From assembly GCA_964545795.1 (NCBI GenBank), contig CAZJGC010000002.1, positions 1,929 through 65,928 on the forward strand: 64,000 bases of DNA. Direction: 5' to 3'. Shown in pieces: positions 571 to 58,701 of the stretch. The stretch's first letter is position 1; every line of letters begins with the position of its first letter. The notes beneath the pieces were generated by a model. It was not told the origin of the DNA and did not search any database. It saw only the letters and a program-made list of their open reading frames with translations. The position numbers were made by a program, and so were the translations under genes. The DNA comes from an uncultured archaeon (GTDB lineage: Archaea; Aenigmatarchaeota; Aenigmatarchaeia; Aenigmatarchaeales; DAIDAN01).

Positions 571-701
571 ATCCAGAACCCATAAAACCTGCTTTTTGCA
601 AATTACAATATTCTTTATTGATTATAAATTTATTTATATTTATAATAGAGAACCAGAACAATTTGATTCTTTTGGTGCGGGGAAAGAGAGTTTCACTAAG
701 A

Positions 702-810
702 GTTGATAAGGGGTTGCATGTTTTGAACAGCCCCGCTTTTCATGCTCTTCAAAAGGGTTGATAAGGGGTTGCATGTTTTGAACAGCCCCTTATTTTGAAC
801 TCTTGAACGG
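702..810. repeat. Intergenic hairpin repeat, copy A: two tandem units of gttgataaggggttgcatgttttgaacagcccc separated by 22 nt
   Basis: The unit at 702-734 repeats exactly at 757-789. Each unit has a 7-bp stem, GGGGTTG/CAGCCCC. A near-identical copy sits at 47975-48085. Confidence 0.65.
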
Positions 811-980
811 ACTAACCGACAGGATAACTTTATCATCTTTTTATCAAATCTCAAGATAATTCTTGAGTCCTGCGCCTTTGACCTGGCTTTGTCCGTTTTC
901 CTGCAGCATGCTGCAAGAAACGTTTGGCTATCCCCGCATAATAATAAAAATATGGTAAGAATAAATTTAAAGTTATGTTA

Positions 981-3365: not shown

Positions 3366-3698
3366 ATGGTAGAATTTGAAACATTAGAGACAGAAGATGT
3401 AAAATTCGGAAATAACAAGTTTTTGGAAGTTGCAAGAAAAAAAGCAAAAACACCCGAAGGAGAGACAGAGTTTATCTCAATCTCTAAGGGTTTTGTATTG
3501 CCTACAGGCAATAAAAGATTCAAGAATGCGCTTGGTTTTGAGGCAAATAAAAACATAATTGACGGACTTATAAATGCGCTTCAGAAAATAAAGGAAAACG
3601 TTCAGGACACAACATCTTCAGAAACAAGTGCAGCAGAACAGGCAGGCGAAGACACGGCTTCTGAAGCAGCAAAAGAAGAGAACAAGTCTGAAGAGTAA
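3366..3698 (+). CDS. Hypothetical protein with an acidic, Ser/Glu-rich C-terminal tail (possible PC4/YdbC-like DNA-binding fold)
   Basis: 110-aa ORF. The KFGNNKFLEVARKK...ISISKGFVLPTGNKRF segment resembles PC4-like proteins only weakly. Confidence 0.35.
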   Translation: MVEFETLETEDVKFGNNKFLEVARKKAKTPEGETEFISISKGFVLPTGNKRFKNALGFEANKNIIDGLINALQKIKENVQDTTSSETSAAEQAGEDTASEAAKEENKSEE

Positions 3699-6998: not shown

Positions 6999-8201
6999 AT
7001 GCTTATGGATTTTGAGGAATTGTTAAAAAATATAAAGGAAGGGAAAATTAAGTTGCATGAACTTGAGAGTATAGAATCTCCTGAGGTTTCTGCCAAAGCA
7101 AGAAGAAAGTTTATTGAAACGGAAACAGGAGCAAAACTTGAAAACATGTCAAAATATTCTTTTCCCGCAGATGAGGTAAGGAAGAATATAGAGAATTTTA
7201 TTGGCGTTGCGCAGGTTCCAATAGGAGTAGCAGGAAAGATTAAGGTAAACAACTTAGGTGAATTCTACATTCCATTGGCAACCACTGAAGCTGCTCTTGT
7301 TGCTTCAGTAAACAGAGGATGTTCTGCAATAAGAAAATCAGGAGGATGCAATGTTTATGTGCTTAACAATGGCATGACGCGCGCGCCTGTATTAAGGGCA
7401 AGAAATACGGCAGATGCTTTAAATTGCGTTAAATGGATAAATGATAATTTTGAGTTAATAAAAAATGAGGCAGAATCAACAACGAGGTTTGGAAAGCTTT
7501 TAGAAATAAAAAAATGGGTTGTAGGAAAAAATGTTTTTCTCAGGTTTGTTTTTGATACAAAAGATGCCATGGGAATGAACATGGCAACTATTGCATGCAG
7601 AAGAGCAGTTGACAAAATAGAAGAGAATACAAATGCAAAGTGCGTAAGCGTATCAGGGAACATGTGCACAGACAAGAAACCGTCTGCAATAAATCTGATA
7701 GAAGGCAGAGGAAAGAGTTTGGTTGCAGAAGTTGTGCTAAAAAGGGAAGTTGTTGAAAATGTTTTGAAGACAACGCCTGAAAACATTGTGGAAGTATGCT
7801 ACAGAAAGAATATGCTTGGTTCTGCTCTTGCAGGTTCTCTTGGATTTAATGCTCAGGTAGGAAACATCATAGCCGCAGTTTTTATAGCAACCGGTCAGGA
7901 CCCTGCGCATGTAACTGAAGCTGCTATGAGCATCACAACAGCTGAGATGGAAGGGAAAGATTTATATTTCTCAGTTTACATACCAAGCCTTGATGTCGGC
8001 ACAGTTGGGGGCGGCACAAAGCTTGCTACGCAACGCGAGGCGTTGCAGATAATGAATATTGACAATTCGCTTGCTCCCGGAGAAAATTCAGAAAAATTTG
8101 CTAAAATAGTTGCTGCTGCTGTTCTTGCAGGAGAGATTTCGCTTTTATCTGCGGAAGTTGCAGGACAGCTTGCTTCAACCCATCAAAAACTTGCGAGGTA
8201 A
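6999..8201 (+). CDS. hmgA: HMG-CoA reductase (class I)
   Basis: DAMGMNM, ENLIEGRGKS and GTVGGGT motifs. The track ORF starts at 6900 and overlaps fen; the ATG at 6999 or 7005 (MLMDFEEL) is more likely. Confidence 0.85.
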   Translation: MLMDFEELLKNIKEGKIKLHELESIESPEVSAKARRKFIETETGAKLENMSKYSFPADEVRKNIENFIGVAQVPIGVAGKIKVNNLGEFYIPLATTEAALVASVNRGCSAIRKSGGCNVYVLNNGMTRAPVLRARNTADALNCVKWINDNFELIKNEAESTTRFGKLLEIKKWVVGKNVFLRFVFDTKDAMGMNMATIACRRAVDKIEENTNAKCVSVSGNMCTDKKPSAINLIEGRGKSLVAEVVLKREVVENVLKTTPENIVEVCYRKNMLGSALAGSLGFNAQVGNIIAAVFIATGQDPAHVTEAAMSITTAEMEGKDLYFSVYIPSLDVGTVGGGTKLATQREALQIMNIDNSLAPGENSEKFAKIVAAAVLAGEISLLSAEVAGQLASTHQKLAR

Positions 8202-47743: not shown

Positions 47744-47974
47744 AATATTTATTAAAAAAGAAAGTATAAAAAGGTTGTTAGTTGCAGCAGGATTTTTGCT
47801 GCTGAAGCCTCTTGAATCTGCCGCTATGATTTGCGGAGAAGATTTAATTTTCTCTGTATGTGATTATGAAAAATATTTTGTCGGCTTCATTTCAAGCATG
47901 GCTTATGCATTATTAAATTATGTGCAGGTTTAAAGAAAATCTGTTTTGGTGGGCCCAACGGGACTCTCAAAAGG

Positions 47975-48085
47975 GTTGATAAGGGGTTGCATGTTTTGGA
48001 CAGCCCCGCTTTTCATGTTCTTCAAAAGGGTTGATAAGGGATTTCAAGATCTACACCTTCCCTTATTTTGAACCCGCGACATCTC
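47975..48085. repeat. Intergenic hairpin repeat, copy B (related to 702-810)
   Basis: gttgataaggggttgcatgttttgGacagccccgcttttcatgTtcttcaaaagggttgataaggg...cttattttgaac differs from copy A by 2 mismatches in the first unit and a truncated second unit. Confidence 0.65.
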
Positions 48086-48298
48086 GGTTTCTTCCTGTCA
48101 TTAATCCTTGCAGGATTTCAACATGCTTTTATCAACAGATAAAAGCCGAGCACTCTATTGTCCGAATTTTTCTTTTGCTGAAGATTTTTCTTTTTAAAGA
48201 AAACTTCTCCAGACTGAGTTATGGGCCCTTTCCAAAAATAATTACTTATTAAAACTTTTAAAGTTAATTGCGAAACAAAAGAAGTGAAGGTTAACATA

Positions 48299-48661: not shown

Positions 48662-48925
48662 AACAGAAATTAATAACTATAAGTATATAAACTTAACACT
48701 TGCGCGTGTTCTGTTAATTTATGCTGGTTATAACGATTTTCAGATAAAAATGAAGCCAGTATTTTGGGATTTTTTGCGGGAAAATCCCAGATAATCGCTG
48801 TTAGTTTCTCCGAACGAATGTGAGGATTGAGTTTTAGTGCAACGTCCTTTCCGAAGGAAAGGCTGGTAAGAGTAAAAAATGGGTCGCAGCCGAAAATATA
48901 TACTCAAGTATATAAATTAAGTTTT

Positions 48926-48965
48926 GGAGATTTTTCGTCGTTTTATTTCTTTGAGAGAGGGTGTC
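48926..48965. repeat. Left terminal inverted repeat of the cassette
   Basis: See the mobile_element entry. Confidence 0.55.
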
Positions 48966-49018
48966 TTTCAATATATTTATAAATATGTCTAAATATTTCT
49001 ATTATAGAGGGATTTGAA

Positions 49019-49165
49019 ATGCCAAGTAAAAGCGTTACATTAAAAGTTGATTCTGAGTTATATGACAAATATAGAGAGTATTGTAAAAAGAAAGGTTTAA
49101 TTATTTCAAGACAATTTGAAATTTTTATTGAGAATGAATTAAAAAAGAGGTCACAAAATGAATAA
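49019..49165 (+). CDS. Ribbon-helix-helix (CopG/antitoxin-like) small protein
   Basis: Manual translation: MPSKSVTLKVDSELYDKYREYCKKKGLIISRQFEIFIENELKKRSQNE. The beta-strand then two helices fit the RHH pattern. Its stop overlaps the next gene's ATG. Confidence 0.5.
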   Translation: MPSKSVTLKVDSELYDKYREYCKKKGLIISRQFEIFIENELKKRSQNE

Positions 49166-49730
49166 TATATTCAATAATCTTGATGATGAAGAGAAAATTG
49201 TATTATATTCGCTAGGAGCTTTAAATAACACTCCGCTTAGAAGCAGAATTAAAATACAAAAATTATTATTTTTGATATCAAATGTTTTTAGTGAATATAA
49301 AGATCTTCTAGAATTTGAACCACATTTGTTTGGTCCTTATAGTGAAACTTTGGAAAATATCTTAGATGATTTAATAAAATTAGGTTTGGTTGTTAAGAAA
49401 GGAGTTAAATATGAATTAACTGAAAAAGGAAAGAAATTGTATGCACACCTTAAACCTAAGAAAGAATTAATAAAAGTTATAGAAGACTTTAAAGAATTTC
49501 TAAATGACTTGCCGGATGATGAAATCCTTGCTTTTGTATATGTAACTTATCCTGATTATATTAGTGAATCTGCCAAGTGGGATGAATTAAAAAAAGACAG
49601 AGTAGAAATTGCAATATCCTTGTTAAAGAAAGAGAAAGTTAGTTTTGGCAAAGCTGTAGAAATCTCTGGTTTAACTTCTCAAAAATTTGAAAAAATTTTA
49701 GAAGAGAGGGGCATCAAATGGAAGAAGTGA
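49158..49730 (+). CDS. Panacea (DUF4065)-like N-domain fused to a UPF0175-like antitoxin C-domain
   Basis: RSRIKIQKLLFLIS...FGPYSETL is Panacea-like. C-terminus: KVSFGKAVEISGLTSQKFEKILEERGIKW, compared with the UPF0175 consensus slgkAAElaGmsrweF.elL.erGIp. Confidence 0.5.
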   Translation: MNNIFNNLDDEEKIVLYSLGALNNTPLRSRIKIQKLLFLISNVFSEYKDLLEFEPHLFGPYSETLENILDDLIKLGLVVKKGVKYELTEKGKKLYAHLKPKKELIKVIEDFKEFLNDLPDDEILAFVYVTYPDYISESAKWDELKKDRVEIAISLLKKEKVSFGKAVEISGLTSQKFEKILEERGIKWKK

Positions 49731-50290
49731 CTACAAAGATATTGGATAATACTGTGCTCTCTGCAAGCATAAAAGAGATTAAATGTATCGATTTAATTAA
49801 GACCTGTTCTTCAAAATATAACCTTGCCACGACAGAAGAAGTCTTTGATGAGTGCCAAGATGGTTTTGATGGCATACAGATAGAAGAACAATTAAAGTTA
49901 ATTGATGTACATAATTTAATGAATAATGAAAAATACTGTGAATTAAAAGATTTTTTATTAGCCAGGTATCCTTATTTACACAAAGGGGAGATTTCATCTT
50001 TTTTATTATCTCTTTTGAAGTTTGAATTAAGTTGTATTCCATACTATTTTGTTACAGATGATAATAAAATGCGTAAGGTTGTATCGAAAATCCATGAAGA
50101 CACATTGTTTATATCAAAGCTGGGGAAAAATATTAGAAGATTTAGAATGACAGGAACTATAGGATTAATAAAGAGAATGTATATTAGAGGTATAATTTCA
50201 CAAGAAGATATTGATAAAATAATTGGAGACCTACAAAACAGTACATTTCGTATAACTCCTGATTTGATAAACTATTTGCGAGGTAGTTAA
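49718..50290 (+). CDS. DUF3368-like predicted PIN-domain nuclease (putative toxin partner of UPF0175)
   Basis: KILDNTVL..., HKGEISSFLLSL...FVTDDNKMRKV...TGTIGLIKRMYIRGIIS matches the GEaeaI...DDrkaR...GTlGvL pattern. Confidence 0.5.
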   Translation: MEEVTTKILDNTVLSASIKEIKCIDLIKTCSSKYNLATTEEVFDECQDGFDGIQIEEQLKLIDVHNLMNNEKYCELKDFLLARYPYLHKGEISSFLLSLLKFELSCIPYYFVTDDNKMRKVVSKIHEDTLFISKLGKNIRRFRMTGTIGLIKRMYIRGIISQEDIDKIIGDLQNSTFRITPDLINYLRGS

Positions 50291-50291
50291 T

Positions 50292-51368
50292 ATGAAACTA
50301 AAAGTAAAACTAGATAATATTGATGAAGAATTAATGTTTAAGAGAATTATATTTAAGGTAGGAGATAAAAAAGTCGTGACTCCAATTAAAGTTAGTCATA
50401 AACAGAATCCTATCAGTCATATAAATGAAATCTACAAAAAGTTTGATTCAATTAAACTGGATAAATGTGCGAACGATGAATCTTTTGAAAGAAAAATAAA
50501 CTCAGAATTGAAGAATTTAATGACACAAGGAATTAATGTTTGTTTAGTTGATTATGCTGACTTAAAAATACCCACTAGTGCGCAATTGGAAACTTTATCT
50601 GATTTACAATACGAGCATAGCGATATAGTTACAACACCTATTATGTCAAAGATAATGAGAGACAAAGAAATATATGTTGGAGAAAAATTAATTAATACAT
50701 TTCTTAATGTAGCGAACAAGTATATAGAGATTGTTGAAACGCTAAATAATAAATCTATTATGGGTGTGATACCTTCAAAAATACCTCGACTATTCTTAGA
50801 ACCCATAATTAAAAATTATCATAACAGAGGTGTGAACTCGTTTATCTTAGATTTGGATGGAAGGTCTATAGAAAGTAATCTTAGTTGGATAAGAAAATTG
50901 ATGAGATTATTAAAAGAATATGATTTAATAGAAGTATCTGTACTTTACACTGTTAATTCTAATAAAGGAAAGTTTATGAAAAATGCGACAGAAATATTGG
51001 CTAAGGACTTTATAAGCGCTGGCTTTGGGGCTGATATTTTAGGCCTTAACCATATTCCTCTAAGGATGCCCTCTGAAGCATGGATTAAAATAAAAATGCA
51101 AAGAAGAGAGAACACATTGAGATTATTTAATAAAAGAAGTTACGGTTATCTAAAAAAGACAGAAACAGAACTAAAACAATTAGGCCTCTATAATAGGAAT
51201 GAAATAGAAAATTTCAACATCTCAGAACAATTCAAAGAAACACAAGTTTTACAACAAAAGTTAAAAGAAGAGAACACTATAGAACCTTACATTAAATCAA
51301 AATCACAAGTTAAGGAAGATGTTATAAAGAAAATAAAGAAGATCAGATCTAATACATTCAGAAGGTAA
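50292..51368 (+). CDS. Uncharacterised 358-aa protein inside the cassette
   Basis: No recognisable motifs. Tightly packed between the DUF3368 gene (1-nt gap) and mod (4-nt gap). Confidence 0.5.
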   Translation: MKLKVKLDNIDEELMFKRIIFKVGDKKVVTPIKVSHKQNPISHINEIYKKFDSIKLDKCANDESFERKINSELKNLMTQGINVCLVDYADLKIPTSAQLETLSDLQYEHSDIVTTPIMSKIMRDKEIYVGEKLINTFLNVANKYIEIVETLNNKSIMGVIPSKIPRLFLEPIIKNYHNRGVNSFILDLDGRSIESNLSWIRKLMRLLKEYDLIEVSVLYTVNSNKGKFMKNATEILAKDFISAGFGADILGLNHIPLRMPSEAWIKIKMQRRENTLRLFNKRSYGYLKKTETELKQLGLYNRNEIENFNISEQFKETQVLQQKLKEENTIEPYIKSKSQVKEDVIKKIKKIRSNTFRR

Positions 51369-51372
51369 TAAC

Positions 51373-53871
51373 ATGGCAAGAAAGAAAATTATAAAGAAAG
51401 ATGAAATAAAACAGTACATTCATGAAGATAAACAGAGAGTGAATAATCCCCCTGTTGGCTTAGTGAGTGCAGAAACTGACAAGCTAAATGGCAAAAAAAC
51501 TTACAAGTTTGACCCACATCTTGATCCAGAACTTCAATGGGCAGGCAAAGCAGAAGGAGTCAGTTTTGAAGTTGATACTGTTTCTCTCCATGTTCATGAA
51601 AGAATAGACCCACTAACAATTATCGAAGCAGTTAAAAAGAAGGATTTAAAAGAACAACAAACACTGTTCCATTATTTTGAAAGTCCATCTGAGAATCTTC
51701 CAATTAGAGAAGCTATAGAGTTCTATAAACATTCTCATGGTTGGTCTAACAGGCTTATAGCAGGGGATTCTCTTCTTGTTATGAATTCTTTATTAGAAAA
51801 AGAAGGAATGGCTGGAAAAGTGCAAATGATTTATATTGATCCGCCCTACGGTATAAAATACAGTTCTAATTTCCAACCATTTGTCAATAAGAGAGATGTA
51901 AAAGATGGCAAAGACGAAGACTTAACTCAAGAACCAGAGATGATTAAAGCATTCAGAGATACTTGGGAATTAGGTATTCACTCCTATTTGACATATCTTA
52001 GAAATAGATTACTTTTAGCAAGAGAACTATTAACTGAAAGCGGAAGCATTTTTGTGCAGATCTCAGATGAAAATTTGCATCATGTCAGAGAAATAATGGA
52101 TGAAATTTTTGGACCAGAGAATTTTATGTACATTATTCCTTTTAGGACAGCCATTAGTACTAATATGATATATTCTATTGCAGATTTCCTTATCTGGTAT
52201 GCAAAAAATAAAAAAGAAGTAAAATTCAACAAACTATTGGATAAAAGATCTCAAGAGAATATAAACAAGACTTTTAATTGGATTGAACTATATAATGATA
52301 TAGAAAGACCTATTAAACCAAAAGAAATATCAGAAAATAATATTCCTAATGGTAAGAGATTTAAACCTGTCGATATCACTAGTAAGAGTGGTTCTGAAGA
52401 GAATTATTTCCCTATAAAGTTAAAAGGCAAAGTATTTTACCCACCTAAAGGAAAATTTTGGTTCTTTAATAAAGAAGGTTTTGAGAAACTAAAAAAAGAA
52501 AATCGTTTTGTAATTATAAACAACAAACTATATGGAAAAAAGTATGAAAGTGATTTCCCCTATATGTTACAGACAAATCTGTGGACTGATACTGCTTCAA
52601 GTACATTCTCTTCAGATAAGATTTATGTCGTTCAAACAAATACAAAAGTTGTTGAAAGGTGTATCTTAATGACTACTGATCCAGGAGATTTAGTTTTTGA
52701 TCCGACTTGCGGTTCAGGAACAACTGCTTTTGTTGCGGAAAAATGGGGTAGAAGATGGATAACTTGTGATACTTCAAGGGTTGCAATAGCATTAGCAAAG
52801 CAAAGGTTAATGACAGCTGTTTTTGATTATTATGAATTAGCTCATCCCGATGAAGGAATCTCGAGTGGTTTTAATTATAAGAAATTCAAACATAGAAGCT
52901 TAAAAGCTCTAGCTAGAAATGAGCCTTATCGTGAGACCGTTCTTTATGATCAACCAATAATTGACAAAAACAAGAAAAGAGTAACTGGTCCTTTCACTGT
53001 TGAGGCAGTTCCTTCTCAAAGAGTTTGGTCTTTTGAGGAAGTTGAAAAAGCAAGGCAAGAGGCAGATATGAGTATCGCCAGAGAAGGAGAAACAGTAAAA
53101 CAAAATGATTGGATTGACAAGATGCTTTCATCAGGAATTAGGGGAAAAGGTGGACAAATTCTTGAATTTGCAAGAATTGAATTATTACCTGGAACAAGAT
53201 GGATTCATGCAGAAGCAGAAACAAAAGACGGACAAAGAGCAGTAATATCTTTTGGTCCTGAATATGCTCCATTAGAGCAAAGACAAGTAGAGTTAGCAAT
53301 TGAAGAGGCACAAACATTAGTTCCGAAACCAAAATTAGTAATTTTTGCATCTTTCCAATTCGATCCCGAAGCTGCAAAAGATATTGATGAATTAAAATGG
53401 CCTGGCGTCACAGTCTTAAAAGCTCAAATGGATACTGATTTGCTTACAGAAGATTTGAAGAAAAAACCAAAGGATTCGCCCGCATTTTGGTTGATAGGAC
53501 AGCCTGATGTTGAACTCACTAAAAAGGGAGATAAATATATTGTTACGGTCAATGGCTTTGATTACTACAACACAAAAACTAGTGAAATTGAATCAGGAGA
53601 TGTTTCAAAAATAGCAATGTGGGAATTAGATACTGATTATGATGGAAGAAGTCTCTATCCAAGGCAGGTATTTTTCCCAATAGCTGGTTCAAAAGAAGGA
53701 TGGAGTAAACTTGCAAGAAGTCTTAAAGCACAGATTGACGAAGAACTGATTGAAAAATATAGAGGAAATGTTTCTTTACCATTCAAATTAGGAAAAAACA
53801 AACAGATTGCTGTAAAAATAATTGATGATAGAGGAATTGAATCTCTAAAAATAATAAAGGTAAGAGAATGA
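51373..53871 (+). CDS. mod: Type III restriction-modification Mod subunit (beta-class N6A/N4C DNA methyltransferase)
   Basis: Motif IV IYIDPPYGI comes before motif I FDPTCGSGTT, which is the beta-class permutation. 832 aa. Confidence 0.75.
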   Translation: MARKKIIKKDEIKQYIHEDKQRVNNPPVGLVSAETDKLNGKKTYKFDPHLDPELQWAGKAEGVSFEVDTVSLHVHERIDPLTIIEAVKKKDLKEQQTLFHYFESPSENLPIREAIEFYKHSHGWSNRLIAGDSLLVMNSLLEKEGMAGKVQMIYIDPPYGIKYSSNFQPFVNKRDVKDGKDEDLTQEPEMIKAFRDTWELGIHSYLTYLRNRLLLARELLTESGSIFVQISDENLHHVREIMDEIFGPENFMYIIPFRTAISTNMIYSIADFLIWYAKNKKEVKFNKLLDKRSQENINKTFNWIELYNDIERPIKPKEISENNIPNGKRFKPVDITSKSGSEENYFPIKLKGKVFYPPKGKFWFFNKEGFEKLKKENRFVIINNKLYGKKYESDFPYMLQTNLWTDTASSTFSSDKIYVVQTNTKVVERCILMTTDPGDLVFDPTCGSGTTAFVAEKWGRRWITCDTSRVAIALAKQRLMTAVFDYYELAHPDEGISSGFNYKKFKHRSLKALARNEPYRETVLYDQPIIDKNKKRVTGPFTVEAVPSQRVWSFEEVEKARQEADMSIAREGETVKQNDWIDKMLSSGIRGKGGQILEFARIELLPGTRWIHAEAETKDGQRAVISFGPEYAPLEQRQVELAIEEAQTLVPKPKLVIFASFQFDPEAAKDIDELKWPGVTVLKAQMDTDLLTEDLKKKPKDSPAFWLIGQPDVELTKKGDKYIVTVNGFDYYNTKTSEIESGDVSKIAMWELDTDYDGRSLYPRQVFFPIAGSKEGWSKLARSLKAQIDEELIEKYRGNVSLPFKLGKNKQIAVKIIDDRGIESLKIIKVRE

Positions 53872-56654
53872 AAACAACAAAACATCTTATAATAAACAGT
53901 CCATACGAAAAGCCTAAGAAACATCTTAAATACATAAGAGAGATCAGGCAGTTTCAATTAGTTGAAGGAAGAAGACCAGCCGGTTATGTTGTTGCATCTG
54001 AACATTCTGACAGTTTTGATGATCCTGGTTTTTTCATAGAATTACCTTTAGTAAATAAAATAAGAGAAAGGATTGATAAATGGCGCGACGCAGGATATCC
54101 TGGAATAACAAGCATAACAAGAGACCTCTTAGATTATTGGACAAACACCCAAAGAGAGATGAGATTGTTCTTTTGTCAATTAGAAGCTATTGAAACATTA
54201 ATTTGGTTGATTGAAGCTCCAGAAAATGAGAAGCAAGGTATTGAAATTCCTAATGATGGGGGTGAATTCCAAAGATTATGCTCAAAAATGGCAACAGGGA
54301 CTGGAAAAACTGTTGTTATGGCAATGCTCATTGCTTGGCAGATTTTAAATAAAGTTACTTATCCAAAAGATACGAGATTTTCTAAATATGTTCTAGTTGT
54401 AGCTCCTGGATTAACCGTTAAGAACAGGCTACAGGTGCTAAATCCTTCTGATGAAAATAACTATTACATGCAGTTTGATCTTATCCCTCCTGGAATGTTT
54501 GATAAGTTAAGACAAGGTTATGTCAAAATAATAAACTGGCACAAATTATCTTGGGAAACTGAAGAACAAATTAAAAGAAAGAAAACTGTAGATAAACGAG
54601 GGGTAAAAAGTGATGAAGCTTACACGAGGGAAGTTCTTGGAGAAATGCGAAATGCAAAAAATATTATTGTTATAAATGATGAAGCGCATCACGCATGGAG
54701 AGTAAATCCTGAAGCAGTAGGAAAATATATTAGACAAAGAGACTTAAAAGATAGTGCAGAAGAAGCTACTGTTTGGATTGGTGGATTAGATAAAATACAT
54801 AAAACTAGAAACATTTTAAAATGCTTTGACTTCTCGGCAACTCCCTTTTACCCTTCAGGAAAAAAAGCTTCAGAGGAACTTCTGTTTGGTTGGATTGTTA
54901 GTGATTTTGGGCTAAATGACGCAATAGAGTCTGGTTTGGTAAAAACTCCAAGAGTTGTTATAAGGGATGATGGAAGATTAACCACTAAAATGAAGTCAAG
55001 ATTTTATCATATATATAACGATCCTGAAGTTAAATCAGATTTAGGTCGTAAAGCAGAACCACATGAACCTTTACCTGATTTAGTCATTAATGCTTATTAT
55101 TATTTAGGTCTTGACTGGCTTGAAACTTTAAAAAAGTGGAAAGGCAAAGTCGAAACTCCTCCTGTTATGATTACAGTTTGTAATCGTACAGAAACCGCAG
55201 CCCGCCTCGAATACGCATTTAATAATGGAAAAATAAGAATTGATGAATTAAAGAACCCCGACAAAACATTAAGAATTGATTCTAAAATACTTACAGAAGC
55301 TGAGAGCAAAGAAGAATCTGCATCGGATTCAGATGAGCAAGATACAAAAAATAAATTATCAAAAAAAGATAAAGCAGAATATCTTAGATTATTAGTTGAT
55401 ACTGTTGGAAAAGTTGGAGAACCGGGAGAGCAAATCCAAAATGTTATCTCGGTTGGTATGCTTTCAGAAGGATGGGATGCAAAAACCGTTACTCATATTA
55501 TGGGTCTGAGGGCATTCTCAAGTCAATTGCTTTGTGAACAAGTTGTTGGAAGAGGATTAAGAAGAACATCTTATGAAATAAATCCAGAAACAGGGCTATT
55601 TGAACCCGAATATGTTAATATTTTCGGGGTGCCATTTACTTTCTTGCCACACGAAGGTGGTAAAGATACGCCACCAGCACCACCAAAGCCAAAAACTAGG
55701 ATTTATGTAGATCCTAATAAAAAAGAACATGAAATAAGATGGCCTAATGTAATTAGAATTAATCATGTTTATAAATCAATGTTATCATTAGATATGAAGA
55801 AAGTTAGAAGATTGGAATTAAGACCTGAAGACACGCCATTAAGAACAGAACTTGCGCCAATTGTAGAAGGAAAGCCAGATGTTACTAAACTTAGTGACAT
55901 AAATCTCGCTGACGAGCAAGTTGAAAAAATTCTGAAGGTTTTAAGAAAACAAAGATTGATTTTTGAAATATCAAGAGAAATATTTGATCAAGTAAAACCA
56001 ACATGGACTGGAAATAAAGAATATTTGTTAATCCAGCTAGTTAAAATTGTGGAGGAGTTTATAGATTCAAATAAATTGGTTATAAAAAGTAAAAGTTATC
56101 AAGATGACTTGAAAAAAAGATTACTTATTTTGTTAAATATGAATAAGATTGTACAGCATGTTTTTAATGCTATTCGATTTGAGAATACTGAAGAACTAGT
56201 GCCTATTTTTGATAAGGAAATACCAATAAAATCAACAGCAAAAATGATGACTTGGTACACTAGTAAACCTTGTGAAATTACAAAAAAATCACATATTAGT
56301 CATGTTGTTTTTGATAGTTCGTGGGAGGCTTCTGAAGCTTTTGAATTTGATAGAAATGAGAATGTCGTTTCTTGGGTAAAAAATGATCATATAGGTTTTG
56401 TTATAAATTACGTCTATAGAGGAGTTATTCACAAATATTATCCAGACTTTCTAATTAAACTAAAAAATGGAAAGATGTTAATACTGGAAGTTAAAGGAAA
56501 AGATGATCAAAAGAATAAAACAAAAAGAGAATATTTAGATGAGTGGGTCAAAGCAGTTAATGCAGATGGAAGATTTGGGAAATGGGCCTGGGACGTTTCA
56601 TTTAGAACTTCTGATATTAAAGATATAATAAATAAACATTCAAAGGAAGACTGA
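53868..56654 (+). CDS. res: Type III restriction enzyme Res subunit (SF2 helicase plus a C-terminal PD-(D/E)xK nuclease)
   Basis: MATGTGKT Walker A. VINDEAHH DEAH box. C-terminal YYPDFLIKLKNGKMLILEVKGKDD. The start overlaps the mod stop (ATGA). Confidence 0.75.
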   Translation: MKTTKHLIINSPYEKPKKHLKYIREIRQFQLVEGRRPAGYVVASEHSDSFDDPGFFIELPLVNKIRERIDKWRDAGYPGITSITRDLLDYWTNTQREMRLFFCQLEAIETLIWLIEAPENEKQGIEIPNDGGEFQRLCSKMATGTGKTVVMAMLIAWQILNKVTYPKDTRFSKYVLVVAPGLTVKNRLQVLNPSDENNYYMQFDLIPPGMFDKLRQGYVKIINWHKLSWETEEQIKRKKTVDKRGVKSDEAYTREVLGEMRNAKNIIVINDEAHHAWRVNPEAVGKYIRQRDLKDSAEEATVWIGGLDKIHKTRNILKCFDFSATPFYPSGKKASEELLFGWIVSDFGLNDAIESGLVKTPRVVIRDDGRLTTKMKSRFYHIYNDPEVKSDLGRKAEPHEPLPDLVINAYYYLGLDWLETLKKWKGKVETPPVMITVCNRTETAARLEYAFNNGKIRIDELKNPDKTLRIDSKILTEAESKEESASDSDEQDTKNKLSKKDKAEYLRLLVDTVGKVGEPGEQIQNVISVGMLSEGWDAKTVTHIMGLRAFSSQLLCEQVVGRGLRRTSYEINPETGLFEPEYVNIFGVPFTFLPHEGGKDTPPAPPKPKTRIYVDPNKKEHEIRWPNVIRINHVYKSMLSLDMKKVRRLELRPEDTPLRTELAPIVEGKPDVTKLSDINLADEQVEKILKVLRKQRLIFEISREIFDQVKPTWTGNKEYLLIQLVKIVEEFIDSNKLVIKSKSYQDDLKKRLLILLNMNKIVQHVFNAIRFENTEELVPIFDKEIPIKSTAKMMTWYTSKPCEITKKSHISHVVFDSSWEASEAFEFDRNENVVSWVKNDHIGFVINYVYRGVIHKYYPDFLIKLKNGKMLILEVKGKDDQKNKTKREYLDEWVKAVNADGRFGKWAWDVSFRTSDIKDIINKHSKED

Positions 56655-56696
56655 GACGCCCTCTCGTTTTCTAATTTTCATAGACGAAAAATCTCC
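56655..56696. repeat. Right terminal inverted repeat of the cassette
   Basis: See the mobile_element entry. Confidence 0.55.
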
Positions 56697-56928
56697 TTAT
56701 TAATATCCTCGCCAAAGGCGAGACAATCTGTGCCGAAGGCACTCCCGCGACCCATTTTTATTTCACTTAACACCCATTACCCTTACTTTTTATTTGCATA
56801 ATCCCAAAAAAGATAAACCGAGATTTTTATAAAGTCGCTTTTGATTCTCTTTTATTTTTTATTGCGCCAACAAAGTTAAGAAAGCCATATGCGATAAGTT
56901 TAAATATTATACTTTTTTATTAGTTTCT

Positions 56929-57185: not shown

Positions 57186-57383
57186 TTGATAGTTATGACA
57201 AAGGGAACGCCAAGCAAGGGAAGGCACAATAAGACAACGCATCTAAGGTGCAGAAGATGCGGAAGAAACAGTTATCATAAGAAAGATGGAAGATGCAGCG
57301 CTTGCGGATATCCTGATGCAAAGTTAAGAAGTTATGCTTGGCAAAATAAAAAGGTCAACAGAACAAGAAAAAACAATAAGTAA
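57186..57383 (+). CDS. rpl37e: Ribosomal protein L37e
   Basis: [37 protein letters not shown]. Confidence 0.85.
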
Positions 57384-57429
57384 TTTCTTTTTGCGCCCAA
57401 TATTTATATTTTCAAAACAAACTATTATT

Positions 57430-58701
57430 ATGTTCTCTTTTCAAATTCTGAAATACTATTCGCAGCCATTTGTGCAAAAAGCGATTCTGGAAACTGCAAA
57501 GGGAAGGGAAACTGTATGCGCAATGGAAGACAGAAGGTATATGAGAAGACCTGATACTATATTGTATGCAAGAGATATAGAAGAAAAGGTAAAGTCTGGT
57601 GCAACAAGTTTTCACTGTTCTGTAGAAAGATGGAGCCAGCCAATGCAATTGTCGCCTGACATGAAGCATGAGGAAATTGAACAGTTGCGAACAGGATGGG
57701 ATTTTATACTTGATATTGATGCAAAAGGAAAGATAGAACATGCAAGAATAGCCGCTTCAATTATTCTTGACTTCTTAAGAGATATGAATGTAAAGGCAGG
57801 CATAAAGTTTTCAGGAAGCCGCGGATTTCATATAGGAATATCCTGCAATGCATTTCCCAAAAAAATTGATTATAAGGAAACAAGAACATTGTATCCTGAA
57901 CTCCCAAGGGCAATAACATGTTTTTTAAGGGATAAGATAAGCGATTATCTTCTTGATGAACTTATAAAGGAGGAGGGAGGAGTGGCGTCTCTTGTAAAAT
58001 CTGTTGGCGGCTCAGTTTCAAGCCTTTCTCCATATATGTTTGTTGACCTTGAAAAGGAATGGGGAAACAGGCACTTGTTCAGGGCGCCGTATTCTCTTAA
58101 TGAGAAGAAATGGTTTGCTTCAGTTCCAATAAAAAGCATACATAATTTCAATATTGAGGACATGAAACCTGAAAAGGTAAAAGAATATATTCCTTTTCTT
58201 GACAATAAGGATGAGGAGGCAAGCGAACTTCTTGTGGCTGCATCCGACTGGATTAGTAAAAGGAAAAAGCATGAAAAACCCAAAGAAAAGAGGAAGATAA
58301 TAATAAAGAACAGGATTCCGGAAGAGTATTTTCCGCCGTGCATAAAAAATATACTTTCAGGTTTATCAGACTATAGAAAAAGGTCAGTATTCACATTAGC
58401 GACATTCCTGAGAAACATGAATTGGTCTAATGAAGAAATAGAAAGTCTTATGCATGAGTGGAATGAAAGAAACAAACCTCCGTTGCGCGGAATATCAAAT
58501 CAAATAAAATGGCATTTAAACCAAACAAGGAAGTTGCTTCCCGCAAATTGCAAGAGCGAATTGTTTTACGCGGAAATATGCAGACCTGACAATAATTGCA
58601 AAGGCTTAAAAAATCCTATAAATTACCCATTCAGGATTATTAAGAAAAAAACACATATAAAAATTAAAAAGAAAAATAGCAATAAGAGTGTTGCGAAATG
58701 A
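57430..58701 (+). CDS. priS: DNA primase small (catalytic) subunit PriS
   Basis: AEP motifs DFILDIDAK (DxD) and FSGSRGFHIGI (sGxRG.H). The track ORF at 57334 overlaps rpl37e; the ATG at 57430 is more plausible. Confidence 0.75.
   Translation: MFSFQILKYYSQPFVQKAILETAKGRETVCAMEDRRYMRRPDTILYARDIEEKVKSGATSFHCSVERWSQPMQLSPDMKHEEIEQLRTGWDFILDIDAKGKIEHARIAASIILDFLRDMNVKAGIKFSGSRGFHIGISCNAFPKKIDYKETRTLYPELPRAITCFLRDKISDYLLDELIKEEGGVASLVKSVGGSVSSLSPYMFVDLEKEWGNRHLFRAPYSLNEKKWFASVPIKSIHNFNIEDMKPEKVKEYIPFLDNKDEEASELLVAASDWISKRKKHEKPKEKRKIIIKNRIPEEYFPPCIKNILSGLSDYRKRSVFTLATFLRNMNWSNEEIESLMHEWNERNKPPLRGISNQIKWHLNQTRKLLPANCKSELFYAEICRPDNNCKGLKNPINYPFRIIKKKTHIKIKKKNSNKSVAK

Follow-up and report, generated by a model that had tools for sequence, protein, structure and literature searches.

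A composite Type III restriction-modification island of probable foreign origin, enclosed by four-block inverted-repeat arms, in the genome of an uncultured archaeon

In this work, we analyzed a six-gene island located between ribosomal-protein genes, with the divergently transcribed rps8e and SmAP-L37e genes on either side, in a 64,000-nucleotide stretch of DNA from an uncultured archaeon (contig CAZJGC010000002.1; the whole of this 64-kb stretch is referred to as the window). The island carries an intact and apparently recently acquired Type III restriction-modification (R-M) system joined to a second module, and it is enclosed by two arms built from four pairs of inverted sequence blocks. 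Our results indicate that these inverted repeats are real, that the island was in all likelihood acquired horizontally and that, as judged from related loci, it is a composite of two modules found separately elsewhere. With slightly less than even confidence, we interpret the arms as ends, acting at the DNA level, of a non-autonomous R-M unit resembling the transposon-like ones reported by Furuta et al. 2010 (PMC2853133).

When the left spacer (48662-49018) was aligned with the right one (56655-56928) taken as its reverse complement, four collinear inverted blocks emerged, lettered A to D from the outside inwards:

48762..48771, block A, left arm: TTTTGGGATT, outermost; pairs with 56800-56809 in inverted orientation, 10/10
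48875..48887, block B, left arm: AAAAATGGGTCGC; pairs with 56747-56759 in inverted orientation, 13/13, the sole such pair in the window
48926..48939, block C, left arm: GGAGATTTTTCGTC; exact reverse complement of 56683-56696, 14/14, the sole such pair in the window
48955..48965, block D, left arm: GAGAGGGTGTC, innermost; 10/11 against GAGAGGGCGTC, the reverse complement of 56655-56665
56655..56665, block D', right arm: GACGCCCTCTC, from the first base 3' of the res stop codon onward
56683..56696, block C', right arm: GACGAAAAATCTCC, partner of block C
56747..56759, block B', right arm: GCGACCCATTTTT, partner of block B
56800..56809, block A', right arm: AATCCCAAAA, partner of block A

The arms are imperfect, extend over ~204 bp on the left (48762-48965) and ~155 bp on the right (56655-56809), and have a GC content of 38-41%, all four blocks being richer in G+C than the background. 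The 48 block positions contain a single mismatch, which reads as a U-G wobble on the + strand and as an A-C mismatch on the - strand. The spacers between the blocks are unalignable and differ in length between left and right (103 vs 40, 38 vs 50 and 15 vs 17 nt); on either side, the C-D spacer has a T-rich + strand, so that the two are not inverted copies of each other, and several spacers hold GC-rich hairpins (CCTTTCC-GAA-GGAAAGG, CTCGCC-AAA-GGCGAG and GTGCC-GAA-GGCAC). The original prediction had described imperfect repeats of ~40 bp bracketing the cassette and ending in an identical 14-nt terminus. Direct reading of the sequence confirmed the bracketing, the 14-nt identity, the 10/11 match of the inner block and the start of the right repeat directly after the res stop codon (TGA, 56652-56654). 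The length and the terminus had to be revised: two further collinear blocks lie outside the 14-mer, which is internal, and the inverted symmetry runs outward past it for ~165 bp on the left and 113 bp on the right.

Two minor sequence features were seen at the arms. Just beyond the right arm, at positions 56819-56833, the start of block C recurs in part a third time (CGAGATTTTTATAAAGTCG vs GGAGATTTTTCGTCG), in direct orientation relative to the left copy. Within the left arm, positions 48895-48918 form a palindromic TATA-like pair, AATATATACTCAAGTATATAAATT (AATATATAC-N-CAAGTATATAAATT), 23/24 identical to positions 11299-11322 of L040, a distant Aenigmatarchaeota contig. The matching site is an AT-rich palindromic spacer between divergent genes; we rejected it as a homologue of the arm, and it probably reflects a shared bidirectional promoter design.

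The repeats are well backed statistically. In 1000 dinucleotide-preserving shuffles of both intergenic regions, a 14-mer appeared in two and a second block of at least 13 in none. The collinear chain of blocks scores 37; with 30 as the threshold for comparison, 3 of 1470 random genomic segment pairs and none of 1500 shuffles scored as high or higher, so that the repeat similarity held up against a shuffled background. Lone inverted 13- to 17-mers are common throughout the window; the evidence therefore lies in the co-location and collinearity of the blocks and not in the 14-mer alone. A chance likeness of two AT-rich intergenic regions could appeal to this abundance and to one random genomic pair that scored 42, but it would have to place four collinear, G+C-richer blocks in precisely the two spacers that flank a foreign operon, and in view of the figures above we regard it as barely credible.

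Between the arms lie six co-directional genes, in which neighbours either overlap or leave a gap of no more than 4 nt, the tight packing that had been predicted for them. We infer that they form one operon, whose TATA-type promoter would be located immediately inward of the left repeat:

48966..49018, +, predicted promoter region; 17% GC, with a TATA-like ATATTTATAAATAT and a repeated AAATATTT element; conserved with loci L071 and L073
49019..49165, +, ribbon-helix-helix (RHH)-like protein, 48 aa, putative regulator; weak RepB-RCR_reg, RelB-ParD and CopG-type matches; 69% identity with the gene that opens the L073 module
49158..49730, +, winged-helix and UPF0175 protein, 190 aa, putative antitoxin/regulator; Pfam UPF0175 and HTH_45
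49718..50290, +, COG2405/DUF3368 PIN-like protein, 190 aa, putative toxin; Pfam DUF3368 26.8 bits, slightly below the cut-off of 27.3
50292..51368, +, protein with a predicted tRNA-guanine-transglycosylase (TGT) fold, 358 aa, of a rare uncharacterised family
51373..53871, +, Type III Mod, 832 aa; Pfam N6_N4_Mtase PF01555 3.6e-32; PADLOC MTase_III PDLC03632 6.8e-153
53868..56654, +, Type III Res, 928 aa, BPTD_3080 family; NCBIfam NF046055 1133 bits (cut-off 800)

The promoter region (ATATTTATAA...AAATATTT) is conserved among the window, L071 and L073, the latter two carrying other copies of the upstream genes. The upstream homology between the window and L071 begins at GGGTGTCTTT, the last 7 nt of block D, which is also found upstream of the L071 TATA box; the left arm thus ends where promoter homology with another module copy begins. 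Between block D and the TATA-like element that follows it lie 8-10 nt, and L071 has retained the GGGTGTC core of this block; blocks A-C have no counterpart upstream of any other module copy compared.

The gene content stood as predicted for the RHH, UPF0175, DUF3368 PIN-like, mod and res genes. An additional assignment of the second gene to Panacea (DUF4065) found no support in a Pfam scan to E 10, which returned HTH_45 (27.8 bits, cut-off 25.5), UPF0175 (37.8 bits, cut-off 27.9) and minor matches only; the same protein has weak DarG-like matches in PADLOC and NCBIfam. Pairs of a UPF0175 (COG2886) protein and a COG2405/DUF3368 PIN protein are predicted type II toxin-antitoxin systems, and the COG2405/DUF3368 pairing has been described as exclusive for UPF0175 (PMC2701414, PMC5499597). 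The window genes resemble such a pair in that the UPF0175 gene lies directly upstream of the DUF3368 PIN-like gene and overlaps it, by 13 nt. They differ from it in that a winged-helix domain of ~130 residues precedes UPF0175, that an RHH gene comes first and that a TGT-fold gene always follows, whereas published three-component UPF0175 variants use a DUF955 protease instead. The R-M genes have the usual Type III layout, with mod before res and overlapping it by 4 nt, an N6/N4 methyltransferase domain in Mod, and a ResIII helicase (PF04851, 3e-09) with a C-terminal nuclease region in Res, where weak RE_endonuc/TnsA-like matches cover residues 807-912. The proteins are ordinary; only their context sets them apart from typical Type III systems, namely the inverted-repeat arms and the fusion with the upstream module into a single predicted operon.

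Composition, codon usage and protein similarity agree with the proposal that the cassette was inserted from outside, and we consider its horizontal acquisition highly probable. The GC content falls to 0.27-0.30 across 48.5-51.5 kb as opposed to 0.35-0.37 outside, and the cassette genes have values of 0.28-0.34 against a host mean of 0.37. In the five larger cassette genes, GC at third codon positions is 0.20-0.25, the host mean being 0.314 (sd 0.04), and the codon-usage distance of the three cassette genes >1 kb is 0.164-0.178, the host maximum for genes of that size being 0.158. Homologues of Res named as Aenigmarchaeota, Thaumarchaeota, Methanoperedens and Nanoarchaeota are 80-92% identical to it, so that Res is far closer to its homologues than the host core genes are to anything: the non-self matches of the host primase comprise a partial one at 77% identity (77% of the query covered), one at 74% and the rest at ≤59%. 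By these primase homologues, the host is best placed as an Aenigmatarchaeota-like DPANN archaeon.

Comparison with related loci shows a composite build. One module comprises the RHH regulator, the winged-helix/UPF0175 putative antitoxin, the COG2405 PIN-like putative toxin and the TGT-fold putative enzyme, and the other is the BPTD_3080-type Type III mod-res pair. The loci that bear on this are:

L003, mod-res near a tyrosine integrase
L004, mod-res opens the locus and is followed by unrelated genes
L005-L007, mod-res in a Thaumarchaeota-labelled chromosome contig
L009, mod-res adjoining a tRNA gene; Res 92% identical
L008, trio of winged-helix-UPF0175, PIN and 358-aa proteins, at 65%, 46% and 56% identity
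L071/L072, module alone, between EamA transporter and Sua5 genes; 358-aa protein 75% identical (L071 10001-11068)
L073, module directly after a tRNA gene; RHH gene 69% identical; 358-aa homologue at 1617-2687
L074-L077 (Altiarchaeales), module with an N6_N4 methylase gene 2 nt behind it, the methylase having only 30% identity to the window Mod; 358-aa homologue at 5033-6109 in L074

In L003, L004, L005-L007 and L009, mod-res is a bare two-gene unit in unrelated contexts. The closest Res homologue (L009) has an opposite-strand tRNA gene within ~60 nt behind it (region 3400-3511), recognised by eye from its GGATTCGAACCC T-arm signature; this fits integration of that copy beside a tRNA gene. The upstream module, for its part, directly precedes an R-M system, each time a different one, in three of the four contexts that are informative, with a gap of 2-36 nt to the methyltransferase gene, and the three R-M systems are unrelated and belong to three lineages. 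In L073, the genes downstream of the module encode an MmeI/Eco57I-type methylase, a T5orf172-ResIII protein and then a serine recombinase. Neither module brings the arms with it. No sequence resembling the right arm follows the res stop codon in the units of L003-L007 and L009, and the repeats were rejected as a property of the mod-res unit since five homologous units, among them the one 92% identical, have unrelated sequence at this place. They were likewise rejected as a property of the upstream module, as L008 and L071-L077 have no such arms.

Other copies of the upstream module have a sequence element of their own. Among the 78 loci compared, the 12-mer CACCACTGGACA occurs only upstream of the TGT-fold module, and it is absent from the window. 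Its sites are L071 8093-8104 (-), 8103-8114 (-, one mismatch) and 8170-8181 (+), L072 564-575 and 641-652, and L073 288-299. In L071/L072 they form an inverted pair ~65 nt apart, and in L073 a single copy lies between the tRNA gene and the RHH gene. The 12-mer may serve these other module versions as an operator or in recombination.

In the reading of the arms as ends of a transposon-like R-M unit, they would in the past have been recognised by a recombinase or transposase provided in trans, through which the island would have been inserted between the divergent rps8e and SmAP-L37e genes. Mobilisation in trans is a hypothesis, the repeats would have served the insertion itself, and the unit is probably a fossil now. 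In Type III systems, Mod methylates one strand of an asymmetric site, and Res, an SF2 motor with a nuclease, cuts unmodified incoming DNA, a cleavage that requires inversely oriented unmodified sites. Together, the PIN/UPF0175 pair and the R-M system would make loss of the island costly. We favor this reading because each arm adjoins the cargo with its inner end, exact to the base, because the genome is compact and the arms are additional DNA in it, because the cargo is foreign and modular, and because R-M units with imperfect inverted repeats and no transposase are a documented class (PMC2853133). That the arms are extra DNA follows from the compact spacers of the window, where intergenic gaps are mostly <100 bp, and from the rps8e and SmAP TATA-like sequences, which are alike and each lie within ~40 nt of the start codon.

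Furuta et al. 2010 described 24 R-M systems with flanking inverted repeats and no mobility genes, two of which had 8-bp target duplications and empty sites; in these two best cases, the repeats are contiguous over 65 bp (60/65) or 26 bp (26/26) and the empty site is found in a sister genome (PMC2853133). Like these units, the island holds a complete R-M system with no transposase or integrase linked to it, is enclosed by imperfect inverted repeats found nowhere else in the region examined, and lies amid unrelated chromosomal genes. It differs in that its arms consist of four separated blocks spread over 155-204 bp without a target duplication, in its archaeal host and in a cargo that adds a second, four-gene module. 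We would thus describe it as an archaeal, composite and long-armed case of a repeat-flanked R-M unit, a kind that is itself already known; its mobility is unproven. Should the reading be true, a class of transposase-less, inverted-repeat-flanked R-M units so far reported from bacteria would extend to Archaea. More doubtfully, the four-block arms could represent a new route for moving such islands in DPANN archaea. These archaea have tiny genomes and depend on hosts, and to our knowledge little has been established on how they acquire and retain defence genes.

A number of results weigh against this reading. No second copy of any arm block exists in the window or in the 78 loci (~1.2 Mb, mostly Aenigmatarchaeota), the blocks are without a match in viral contigs and plasmids, and no homologous cassette elsewhere has these repeats. 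Target-site duplications, which together with further repeat copies the original prediction had proposed to look for, were found at no block edge, including the outer edges of blocks C and A: block C is flanked by TAAGTTTT and TTATTAAT and block A by GCCAGTA and AAGATAA, and the sole word common to the flanks is the 7-nt AGATAAA, at unequal distances. Domain scans of the cassette and ~30 further window genes (~36 in total) detected no transposase, integrase or resolvase; for the cassette itself, this bears out what had been predicted. Nor was an empty rps8e-SmAP junction seen among 61 Aenigmatarchaeota loci plus L001/L002: a single-protein scan of genome contigs gave no match and the alignment scan yielded the 61 loci, none with the junction, which is explained by the distance of the relatives, the closest with a usable context having 74% primase identity; the missing junction, which the original prediction had named as a refuting result, therefore does not count as a refutation. 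In addition, the four blocks are four different sequences, unlike the repeated single binding motif of Tn7 or Mu ends, and the presence of perfect blocks beside unalignable spacers suggests ongoing constraint, a poor fit to a fossil. A comparable balance results from the comparison with miniature inverted-repeat transposable elements (MITEs) and other non-autonomous transposons with terminal inverted repeats, which the island resembles in its terminal inverted symmetry and the absence of an internal transposase, while the multiple copies and target duplication that are normal for MITEs were seen neither in the window nor in the fetched loci.

Several of these same observations would be accommodated if the arms were older than the cassette, that is, if a long palindrome (foldback/MITE-like or a symmetric regulatory region) in the rps8e-SmAP spacer had been split by the defence operon. 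The absence of a target-site duplication and of any other copy is in agreement with this possibility, as is the outward run of the symmetry (~165/113 bp) into two similar divergent promoter-like regions, and the TATA-like pair AATATATACTCAAGTATATAAATT of the left arm has its 23/24 match in the divergent-promoter spacer of L040. However, block D is, in its last 7 nt, part of the upstream homology that the module itself shares with L071, both insertion boundaries would have to coincide exactly with the cargo ends, no such palindrome was seen in the 61 related loci, and its 360 bp would be unusual where spacers are mostly <100 bp; we consider this explanation unlikely. A role at the DNA level as operator or insulator sites is decidedly improbable. 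The blocks would be bound by the RHH and winged-helix/UPF0175 proteins, both predicted to bind DNA and encoded in the cassette, regulating the operon and blocking read-through into and out of the ribosomal-protein genes. The position of block D relative to the TATA-like element and its conserved core in L071 would suit an operator, and other module copies have a different conserved motif at the equivalent place, the 12-mer CACCACTGGACA, which is an inverted pair in L071. Yet blocks A, B and C lack counterparts upstream of those copies, four distinct sequences of 10-14 bp over 200 bp exceed what RHH or helix-turn-helix operators normally need, and a mirror-image set at the 3' end of the operon has no recognised function.

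The arms might also act at the RNA level, the 5' and 3' flanks of a long transcript pairing as a stem (helices of 13, 14 and 11 bp with internal loops and side hairpins) that, by analogy with archaeal rRNA processing stems, would serve processing, circularisation or stabilisation. Such stems share with the arms a long-range complementarity of the flanks around a long unit, and the pattern of perfect helices with unrelated loops of unequal length, some bearing GC-rich hairpins, would suit one; so would the single mismatch, which is a tolerated wobble on the + strand only, and the C-D spacers, T-rich on this strand at both sides and not inverted copies. The host, moreover, splices tRNA introns at three unusual positions, which implies a versatile RNA-processing apparatus. 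Against these points, the unit here is a protein-coding operon and its conserved TATA-type promoter is predicted downstream of all four left blocks, so that the transcript would exclude them. The two strands fold equally well (-114.2 kcal/mol for the minus and -112.3 for the plus strand), single arms are not significantly structured (z -0.9 to -1.5), and Rfam returned no match at the gathering threshold over the window and noise only at E to 10 for each flank, by which known RNAs in the arms were also dismissed. Archaeal processing stems are cut at a bulge-helix-bulge, two 3-nt bulges on opposite strands with a 4-bp helix between them. By eye, no such motif could be drawn at any helix junction, where the internal loops measure 5x3 and 15x17, and since homologues of the arms are lacking, covariation cannot speak for a stem; on balance, an RNA role seems improbable to us. 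Two further RNA candidates were rejected: a split or intron-containing tRNA, suggested by the acceptor-stem-like GGGTCGC...GCGACCC-A, has no D-arm or T-arm by eye, and a pair of paralogous inverted small-RNA genes gave a weak consensus fold (-9.4 kcal/mol) in which the blocks fell out of register.

Apart from the arms, the more original lead offered by the island is the TGT-fold/PIN/UPF0175 module, which recurs upstream of diverse R-M systems, as indicated by the four contexts and by structure prediction. The 358-aa window protein has no family match in Pfam, PADLOC and NCBIfam scans and belongs to a rare family of 53 clusters, mostly archaeal. An AlphaFold model from 30 homologues was confident (pLDDT 91.6, pTM 0.90), the best 50 matches listed by Foldseek against the PDB were all TGT/QTRT1, and the model includes an N-terminal beta-sheet, a feature of TGTs that DpdA lacks; the predicted fold is that of a TGT. 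At the sequence level, none of the 30 family members matched the TGT profile PF01702, the family profile retrieved no solved TGT or DpdA from PDB sequences, and 10 of the 30 weakly match DUF7570. Members of the TGT superfamily have three invariant active-site aspartates, acting as acid/base, in base recognition and as nucleophile; in the 358-aa family, D104, D239 and D248 are invariant and D111, D187 and D189 near-invariant, and of these D104, D187, D189, D239 and D248 are candidates for the three positions. In contrast to TGT and DpdA, where the Zn site CxCxxC...H is conserved (PMC10164549), the window protein has only two cysteines (C59 and C84) and the family no conserved Cys cluster, so that the site is absent.

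The modelled TGT-type TIM barrel and the defence context given by the restriction genes liken the protein to DpdA, which inserts preQ0 into DNA in the Dpd R-M system (PMC10164549), and to Cap10 of CBASS. These represent two defence-related chemistries on a TGT fold, for which the 358-aa family would be a candidate third. DpdB/DpdC partners and preQ0 synthesis genes were not found near the 358-aa gene. In the contexts examined, the TGT-fold gene was always preceded by the PIN/UPF0175 pair, and no relatives were detected in viral contigs or phages, a distant match on a Haloarcula plasmid having no annotated R-M neighbour. It is tempting to speculate that the four genes form a previously undescribed accessory module working together with R-M systems, a proposal that we advance as doubtful. 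If so, the TGT-fold protein could exchange bases on DNA or tRNA, as DpdA and TGT do, and in this way add a second self-marking layer or an abortive response under the control of the PIN/UPF0175 pair.

The neighbourhood of the island is made up of housekeeping genes, with the alpha and beta subunits of PheRS, a MinD/ParA ATPase and rps8e on the left, and SmAP, L37e, a fused PriS-PriL primase, GINS, a dsDNA-binding protein and SMC on the right. A core neighbourhood had been predicted, and this part stands; that it includes a conserved SmAP-L37e-priS cluster holds weakly. L37e is near the primase gene only in the closest relative, with another gene between them, and MinD lies directly beside the primase in five more distant Aenigmatarchaeota loci, so that the stretch from the tRNA gene over rps8e, the cassette and SmAP to L37e is, as a whole, lineage-specific at this position. 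The primase (57334-58701) is a PriS-PriL fusion with DNA_primase_S and DNA_primase_lrg domains in one 455-aa open reading frame, which overlaps the L37e gene by 50 nt as listed; its true start may be a later codon, since homologues mostly have 410-450 aa. A replication origin was considered at the locus and rejected, with no orc1/cdc6 among the scanned window genes and no ORB-like TCCAGTGG near the locus.

The tRNA gene just mentioned is a tRNA-Lys(UUU) at 47947-48228 (-), 70 nt downstream of rps8e, with three introns (D-loop, 37/38 and T-loop) and an encoded CCA. It was missed by ARAGORN and Rfam on genomic DNA, and ARAGORN calls it after in-silico splicing of the exons 48228-48209, 48157-48140, 48088-48067 and 47963-47947. 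A tRNA-Leu(CAA) at 673-937 (-), also with three introns (exons 937-925, 888-861, 824-794 and 689-673), was likewise ARAGORN-positive only after splicing, and a standard tRNA scan of the window reported zero tRNAs. The T-loop introns of the two genes (702-789 and 47967-48040) are homologous, with 97% identity over 66 nt, and each contains a tandem duplication of ~55 nt (CAAAAGGGTTGATAAGGGG...), a similarity that suggests spread of the T-loop intron between tRNA genes.

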